DNA from: Escherichia phage T7
Reading direction: 5' to 3' (one strand)
DNA: 37,603 bases
Sequence record: PV223881
In this document: positions 6,269 to 6,575 of the stretch, piece after piece
How the letters are laid out: every line of letters begins with the position of its first letter
How positions within the stretch are numbered: position 1 is the first letter of the stretch
Position numbers and translations under genes: made by a program
The notes under the pieces: model-generated
Database searches by the model: none
Told to the model about the DNA's origin: nothing
What the model saw: only the letters and a program-made list of their open reading frames with translations

Positions 6269-6529
6269 ATGTTTCGACTTCATTACAACAAAAGCGTTAA
6301 GAATTTCACGGTTCGCCGTGCTGACCGTTCAATCGTATGTGCGAGCGAGCGCCGAGCTAAGATACCTCTTATTGGTAACACAGTTCCTTTGGCACCGAGC
6401 GTCCACATCATTATCACCCGTGGTGACTTTGAGAAAGCAATAGACAAGAAACGTCCGGTTCTTAGTGTGGCAGTGACCCGCTTCCCGTTCGTCCGTCTGT
6501 TACTCAAACGAATCAAGGAGGTGTTCTGA
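6269..6529 (+). CDS. 1.6: gp1.6 (unknown function)
   Basis: 86-aa [24 protein letters not shown]... Confidence 0.85.
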
Positions 6530-6564
6530 TGGGACTGTTAGATGGTGAAGCCTGGGAAAAATAA
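6529..6564 (+). pseudogene. 1.7: Gene 1.7 stub: first 11 codons ([11 protein letters not shown]) then stop; body deleted
   Basis: ATG overlaps the 1.6 stop as in T7, but the frame ends after 11 codons; about 536 bp missing by offset arithmetic. Confidence 0.75.
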
Positions 6565-6575
6565 GGATAAATGTT

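Follow-up and report, generated by a model that had tools for sequence, protein, structure and literature searches.

Gene 1.7 of bacteriophage T7 encodes a protein that is annotated as a nucleotide kinase in NC_001604 and is non-essential in the laboratory (PMC9712115). The substrates that it phosphorylates are dTMP and dGMP, as given in PMC11897194 with a citation of Tran et al. 2012, and the title of Tran et al. 2008 credits it with making the growth of T7 sensitive to dideoxythymidine. T7 derivatives without this gene have been described. T7 delta-1.7, as outlined by Tran, Richardson and Tabor (PNAS 2008), is a laboratory knockout of the same non-essential kinase gene. T7 delta-gp1.7 of Adler et al. 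(Nat Microbiol 2022, PMC9712115) is a knockout of the same gene obtained by Cas13a counterselection, but its deletion boundaries are unlike those described here. Both of these phages are otherwise wild type, whereas the genome considered here, that of the engineered phage T7-B-G, has six further deletions and a payload. In the study of Yuan et al. (NAR 2022, PMC9825161), which reduced the T7 genome iteratively with CRISPR/Cas9, gp1.7 is among the genes that were removed by design, and not among the unplanned large deletions.

The closest system of all is the set of phages constructed by the SMART method of Zhang et al. (mBio 2025, PMC12153263), in which gp1.4, gp1.7, gp3.8, gp4.3-4.7, gp5.3 and gp7.7 were seamlessly deleted in BAC-cloned segments by two-round Red-ccdB recombineering. 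The second Red-ccdB round uses synthetic single-stranded oligos with two 40-nt homology arms. Table S2 of this paper cites the genome-reduction study of Yuan et al. (PMC9825161), and Table S1 lists T7-B-G as PV223881. T7-B-G is derived from T7-B by insertion, at gp7.7, of a PT7-lysGH15 cassette of 1.6 kb (PMC12153263).

In the window, by which we mean the whole 37,603-bp stretch of DNA analysed here, gene 1.7 is reduced to a short stub between intact genes 1.6 and 1.8. The features of this region, with the evidence for each, are as follows.

6241..6263, + strand: phi1.6 T7 promoter, TAATACGACTCACTAAAGGAGAC, intact (phi1.6 +1 at 7895 in NC_001604, offset 1637)
6269..6529, + strand: gene 1.6, intact, 86 aa (ORF list; gp1.6 is annotated in PV223880)
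6515..6521, + strand: native 1.7 Shine-Dalgarno AAGGAGG, 7 nt 5' of the ATG (sequence)
6521..6600, + strand: footprint of oligo HA-gp1.7, an 80-nt ssDNA with two 40-nt arms (Table S7, PMC12153263)
6529..6564, + strand: gene 1.7 stub, the first 11 native codons and then TAA (translation, tblastn, Pfam scan)
6560..6561, no strand: deletion junction, where 6560 is T7 8197 and 6561 is T7 8734 (exact-match extension; Table S2, PMC12153263)
6562..6583, + strand: last 22 nt of native 1.7, T7 8735-8756 (alignment to NC_001604)
6563-6567, + strand: 1.8 Shine-Dalgarno AAGGA, within the retained 1.7 end (sequence)
6576..6722, + strand: gene 1.8, intact, 48 aa, with its native 14-nt upstream context (ORF list; gp1.8 in PV223880, PV223882 and PV223883)

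This stub is almost certainly what a planned, seamless knockout of gene 1.7 left behind in T7-B-G (T7-B with PT7-His6-LysGH15 at 7.7), and no feature of the sequence speaks against that reading. An earlier note, made from the sequence alone, had described it as an 11-codon remnant of 1.7 whose ATG overlaps the 1.6 stop as in T7, and direct reading bears this out: the 1.6 stop TGA lies at 6527-6529 and the 1.7 ATG at 6529-6531, which gives a 1-nt overlap at 6529. The same overlap is present in wild-type T7 (NC_001604), where 8166 is both the end of 1.6 and the start of 1.7. On translation, the ORF of the stub is ATGGGACTGTTAGATGGTGAAGCCTGGGAAAAATAA, 11 codons long, followed by a TAA stop at 6562-6564. 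The note's estimate that about 536 bp are missing turns out to be exact. In the alignment to NC_001604, the left flank matches exactly up to T7 8197/8198 and the right flank from 8734/8735 onwards, with a junction ambiguity of 1 nt ('A'), and the wild-type sequence that is absent amounts to exactly 536 bp (8198-8733). Of the 196 codons of the gene, 185 are lost.

The note had also proposed that the last 22 nt or so before gene 1.8 are the native 1.7 3' end and that the 1.8 ribosome-binding site is kept. The native end is indeed retained (taaggataaatgttatgcataa, also given as TAAGGATAAATGTTATGCATAA; T7 8735-8756, window 6562-6583, 22 nt), and AAGGA at 6563-6567 is untouched. However, only 14 of these 22 nt, the Shine-Dalgarno sequence included, precede the 1.8 ATG at 6576, and the other 8 are the first nucleotides of gene 1.8 itself. 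The first triplet of the retained end, TAA, serves as the new stop of the stub. A full-length 1.7 ORF of about 196 aa, which would have contradicted the note, is not found elsewhere in the window by tblastn or blastn. When wild-type gp1.7 is compared with the whole window by tblastn, residues 1-11 are the sole match, and neither a second copy of gene 1.7 nor the deleted 536 bp is found there by tblastn or blastn. Relocation of the gene to another part of the genome was also considered, and was rejected for want of any tblastn or blastn match in the window.

The junction is that of a published design. Table S2 of PMC12153263 gives the gp1.7 deletion as 8,198-8,733, 536 bp, and Table S7 gives an 80-nt oligo, HA-gp1.7. 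A run of 77 consecutive bases of this oligo matches window 6521-6597 with 0 mismatches, which places the junction at 6560/6561; the final few bases of the oligo text lack one C, probably through a slip in text extraction. The deletion in T7-B-G is thus already known and published, and there is nothing new in it.

The paper and the sequence match show how the allele was made. With the T7 genome divided among BAC-cloned segments, an amp-ccdB cassette was put into gene 1.7 on segment F4. Red recombineering then swapped amp-ccdB for the 80-nt oligo, one arm of which stops at T7 8197 while the other starts at T7 8734, after which the segments were reassembled and the phage rebooted. This design keeps the overlap of the 1.6 stop and the 1.7 start together with the first 11 codons, puts TAA directly in frame, and retains the 14 nt 5' of gene 1.8, including its Shine-Dalgarno sequence. 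The coordinates are those of the gp1.7 allele of Yuan et al. 2022, applied one nucleotide further to the right.

The remainder of the window fits the same origin. It is a complete engineered genome, not a fragment, each end of which carries the 160-bp terminal repeat of T7, and it is collinear with NC_001604 except for one 1,587-bp insertion and the following seven deletions, given in NC_001604 coordinates.

~1257-2737: deletion from the end of 0.3 through most of 0.7
7609-7764: deletion of gene 1.4
8198-8733: deletion of gene 1.7
11268-11558: deletion of gene 3.8
13279-14297: deletion of genes 4.3-4.7
16484-16821: deletion of gene 5.3
20109-20208: deletion in gene 7.7, with the cassette in its place

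The seven computed breakpoints agree with Table S2 of PMC12153263 within junction ambiguities of 1-3 nt. Gene 19.5 is retained, and T7 20209 to 39937 forms one continuous block. The records found by megablast to be identical over the 1.7 region are PV223880 ('recombinant T7-B'), PV223882 ('T7-B-GJ') and PV223883 ('T7-B-J'). Once the insert at 16288-17874 is taken out, the window equals PV223880 at 36,016 of 36,016 bases; T7-B lacks the 1,587-bp insert and is otherwise 100% identical. The window also equals PV223882 minus the extra 829-bp cassette of that phage. This LyJDSS3 cassette, which follows gene 10, is carried by T7-B-J and T7-B-GJ, unlike the window. T7-B, T7-B-G, T7-B-J and T7-B-GJ (PV223880-PV223883) share with the window its 1.7 junction, its six further deletions and all 19 of its backbone substitutions. 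Every tested feature of the T7-B lineage is present, namely the oligo junction, the seven deletions, and the backbone with its cassette; the identity with T7-B-G is drawn from the sister records PV223880, PV223882 and PV223883 and from the tables of PMC12153263.

Several of the other engineered sites have features of their own. The deletion of 0.4-0.7 (window 925-1320) also takes 22 nt from the end of gene 0.3 (ocr); the ocr ORF is left without its six C-terminal residues (YEEDEE) and continues instead into 20 out-of-frame residues from the 0.7 remnant. Gene 0.3 is unannotated in the sister GenBank records. The remnant of gene 0.7 (1257-1619) consists of its last ~121 codons, without a start codon, and lies between ocr and gene 1. 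In the payload cassette (16288-17874), a consensus T7 promoter and a pET-type leader with a ribosome-binding site precede a His6 tag and an ORF; the cassette ORF (16351-17874) is the stretch annotated as Staphylococcus phage endolysin LysGH15 in PV223882, and no transcription terminator was noticed between it and gene 8. At gene 7.7 only 100 bp are removed, and an 87-codon 5' remnant (16027-16287) stops at the TAA of the inserted promoter.

The 3.8 and 4.3-4.7 junctions (window 9085-9100 and 10795-10820) lie in imperfect repeats, GAGGAGGCA / TAGGAGGGA and ACAGGATTCTTGAT / ACAGGTTTCTTGAC, and at the 3.8 junction the Shine-Dalgarno sequence of gene 4A now comes from the left-hand copy of the repeat. 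Yuan et al. describe the loss of 4.3-4.7 as an unplanned large deletion (PMC9825161). Because of these repeats and that unplanned loss, it may be that the 3.8 and 4.3-4.7 alleles descend from spontaneous events that were later copied in the oligo design of Zhang et al.

The 19 substitutions relative to NC_001604 (e.g. 4830, 11458, 25556-25557, 32641, 32920 and 32924) are all common to T7-B, and none is present in Yuan's T7 (MZ375233). Among the coding changes, 15 of 16 are non-synonymous, including T118A, K211E and R212Q in gene 17 (tail fibre), Q55S in gene 14, D197N in gene 5 and Y59H in gene 1.2. These substitutions could be stock-specific adaptation or cloning mutations.

Twelve CiPGr clones (MZ3752xx) carry a near-identical 1.7 junction. 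The allele of one of them, MZ375285 (T7_270L), is also a 536-bp deletion that leaves an 11-codon stub followed by TAA and keeps the 1.8 ribosome-binding site. However, it removes 8197-8732, one nucleotide to the left of the 8198-8733 removed in the window, and its stub ends in ...WET (ACA) where that of the window ends in ...WEK (AAA). The C in place of A at window 6560 is the single difference in a 161-bp comparison of the two sequences around 1.7. The alleles also differ in how they were made: the CiPGr allele by Cas9 cleavage with a 2x50-bp plasmid template and serial passage (PMC9825161), and that of the window with an ssDNA oligo in a BAC.

The same offset recurs in the genome. The deletions of 1.4, 1.7 and 5.3 (junctions 6127/6128, 6560/6561 and 13000/13001) are each displaced by +1 nt relative to MZ375285. 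Yuan's T7 is 39,938 bp long, and its positions downstream of gene 0.6 are one higher than those in the 39,937-bp NC_001604. The shift to the right would stem from a difference in genome numbering between the two studies; given three concordant shifts, we infer that the simplest reading is an application of Yuan's coordinates, unchanged, to the NC_001604 numbering. Physical descent from a CiPGr clone was considered and rejected, as the junction is 1 nt off and 0 of the 19 backbone substitutions of the window occur in Yuan's T7. What the sequences indicate is that only the coordinates are inherited from Yuan et al., and not the DNA.

A one-base slip of this kind is harmless at 1.7, where it alters only the last codon of the stub, and at 1.4 it means that one more base of the phi1.5 promoter is lost. 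The 1.4 deletion (T7 7609-7764; window 6113-6135, junction 6127/6128) is one base off the CDS (7608-7763) and leaves the A of the 1.4 ATG. Besides TAA(-17..-15), it takes out T(-14) of phi1.5. The promoter is now TTTAACGACTCACTAAAGGAGGT as against TAATACGACTCACTAAAGGAGGT, altered at -16, -15 and -14, of which the CiPGr 1.4 allele alters only two.

T7 deletes between short repeats. A spontaneous or CRISPR-escape deletion, in which short direct repeats within 1.7 recombined or mispaired by slippage, is the alternative that survives best, and it is nevertheless very improbable. The flanking BLAST alignments overlap by 9 nt, and the wild-type breakpoint sequences, TGGGAAAAA and TGAGAAACA, match at 7 of 9 positions in register with the deletion. 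However, the two breakpoints have only a single A exactly in common, and a 7/9 match is at background level, there being 241 such 9-mer pairs within gene 1.7. A 13-nt exact repeat (8237/8681) is present in the gene and was not used. Additionally, the junction coincides with a synthetic oligo and with tabulated design coordinates, and Yuan et al. class gp1.7 with the designed and not with the unplanned large deletions (PMC9825161). A microhomology origin in particular was rejected, since exact extension leaves 1 shared nt and a repeat of several nucleotides at both breakpoints is absent.

The next alternative, an artefact of assembly or sequencing in which a full-length 1.7 is present and the reads have collapsed, was raised by the earlier note as a general possibility, and its probability is negligible. 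The same allele is present in PV223880, PV223882 and PV223883, and it equals the published design oligo, with the junction falling exactly as designed. Furthermore, no repeat is of a length that could make 536 bp collapse, and the deletions were verified by PCR and whole-genome sequencing (PMC12153263). Just as slight is the chance of a natural T7-like isolate that lost 1.7 in the wild: although gp1.7 is dispensable under laboratory conditions (PMC9712115), the genome contains a Staphylococcus phage endolysin to which a pET-style T7 promoter, ribosome-binding site and His6 leader have been fused, its six other clean deletions match a published table, this junction family occurs only in engineered database clones (3 PV2238xx and 12 MZ3752xx), and gp1.7 homologues are otherwise widespread (1,253 phage records). 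The loss of 1.7 is not natural or spontaneous. The stub was produced on purpose by recombineering and has been published as one of seven deletions, and this is the context that was missing from the earlier note.

For a designed knockout of this kind, what is lost can be read from the wild-type protein. Its Pfam match is DUF3310 (aa 122-184), which falls wholly in the deleted part, and its match to PHROG 2585 'nucleotide kinase' (aa 20-196, E=1.4e-86) is likewise wholly deleted. The view of gp1.7 as a kinase in the earlier note is consistent with this PHROG match, with the NC_001604 annotation and with PMC11897194. With residues 1-11 only, the stub does not belong to the gp1.7-type kinases, which are defined by an ORF of about 196 aa with DUF3310. 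No solved structure of a gp1.7 relative is detectable by sequence search.

With 94% of the protein removed, absence of the gp1.7 dTMP/dGMP kinase activity is the only reasonable expectation. Given this expected loss, and the dideoxythymidine sensitivity that the literature makes dependent on gp1.7, T7-B-G should rely on host kinases for the dTMP and dGMP steps and, on the basis of Tran et al. 2008, should be resistant to dideoxythymidine, in agreement with the loss of dideoxynucleoside sensitivity that the earlier note had proposed. The 11-residue peptide is probably still made, since the native 1.7 Shine-Dalgarno sequence AAGGAGG is kept, and is probably without function.

The neighbouring genes should be little affected. 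The phi1.6 promoter, which drives gene 1.6, the 1.7 stub, 1.8 and 2, is untouched by the deletion. Gene 1.6 itself, the Shine-Dalgarno sequences of both 1.7 and 1.8, and the 1.8 start codon are likewise unaltered. Ribosomes that translate the stub would now stop 12 nt 5' of the 1.8 start, as opposed to just inside 1.8 in the native arrangement. Since termination would occur at that short distance, expression of 1.8 and 2 is predicted to be near normal; polar effects are unlikely because the translational context of 1.6 and 1.8 is kept. Transcription from phi1.6 should thus be undisturbed, with 1.6, 1.8 and 2 translated at near-normal levels. The fitness of T7-B is reported in aggregate, with a burst size of 197 versus 224 for the wild type and a wild-type plaque size (PMC12153263).

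A further possible consequence has to do with antiviral defence. T7 gp1.7 is a reported activator of the Avs5 antiviral protein EfAvs5, and T7 escape mutants against EfAvs5 were not obtained by the authors of that work, though 1.7 is dispensable (PMC11897194). It may therefore be that T7-B and its lysin derivatives, which lack gp1.7, partly evade Avs5-type immunity and resist chain-terminating nucleoside analogues, but this is unlikely. The failure to obtain escape mutants in spite of a dispensable 1.7 argues that gp1.7 is not the sole trigger of Avs5, and it is on account of that failure that evasion is rated as unlikely. If the proposal were true, it would give the T7-B chassis an unplanned host-range or robustness trait.

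Since the 1.7 deletion is documented as part of the design of a synthetic phage that is already published, it carries little weight as a discovery. For those who use T7-B, its meaning is that the chassis is predicted to depend on the dTMP and dGMP kinases of the host and to have an altered sensitivity to dideoxythymidine and possibly to Avs5.
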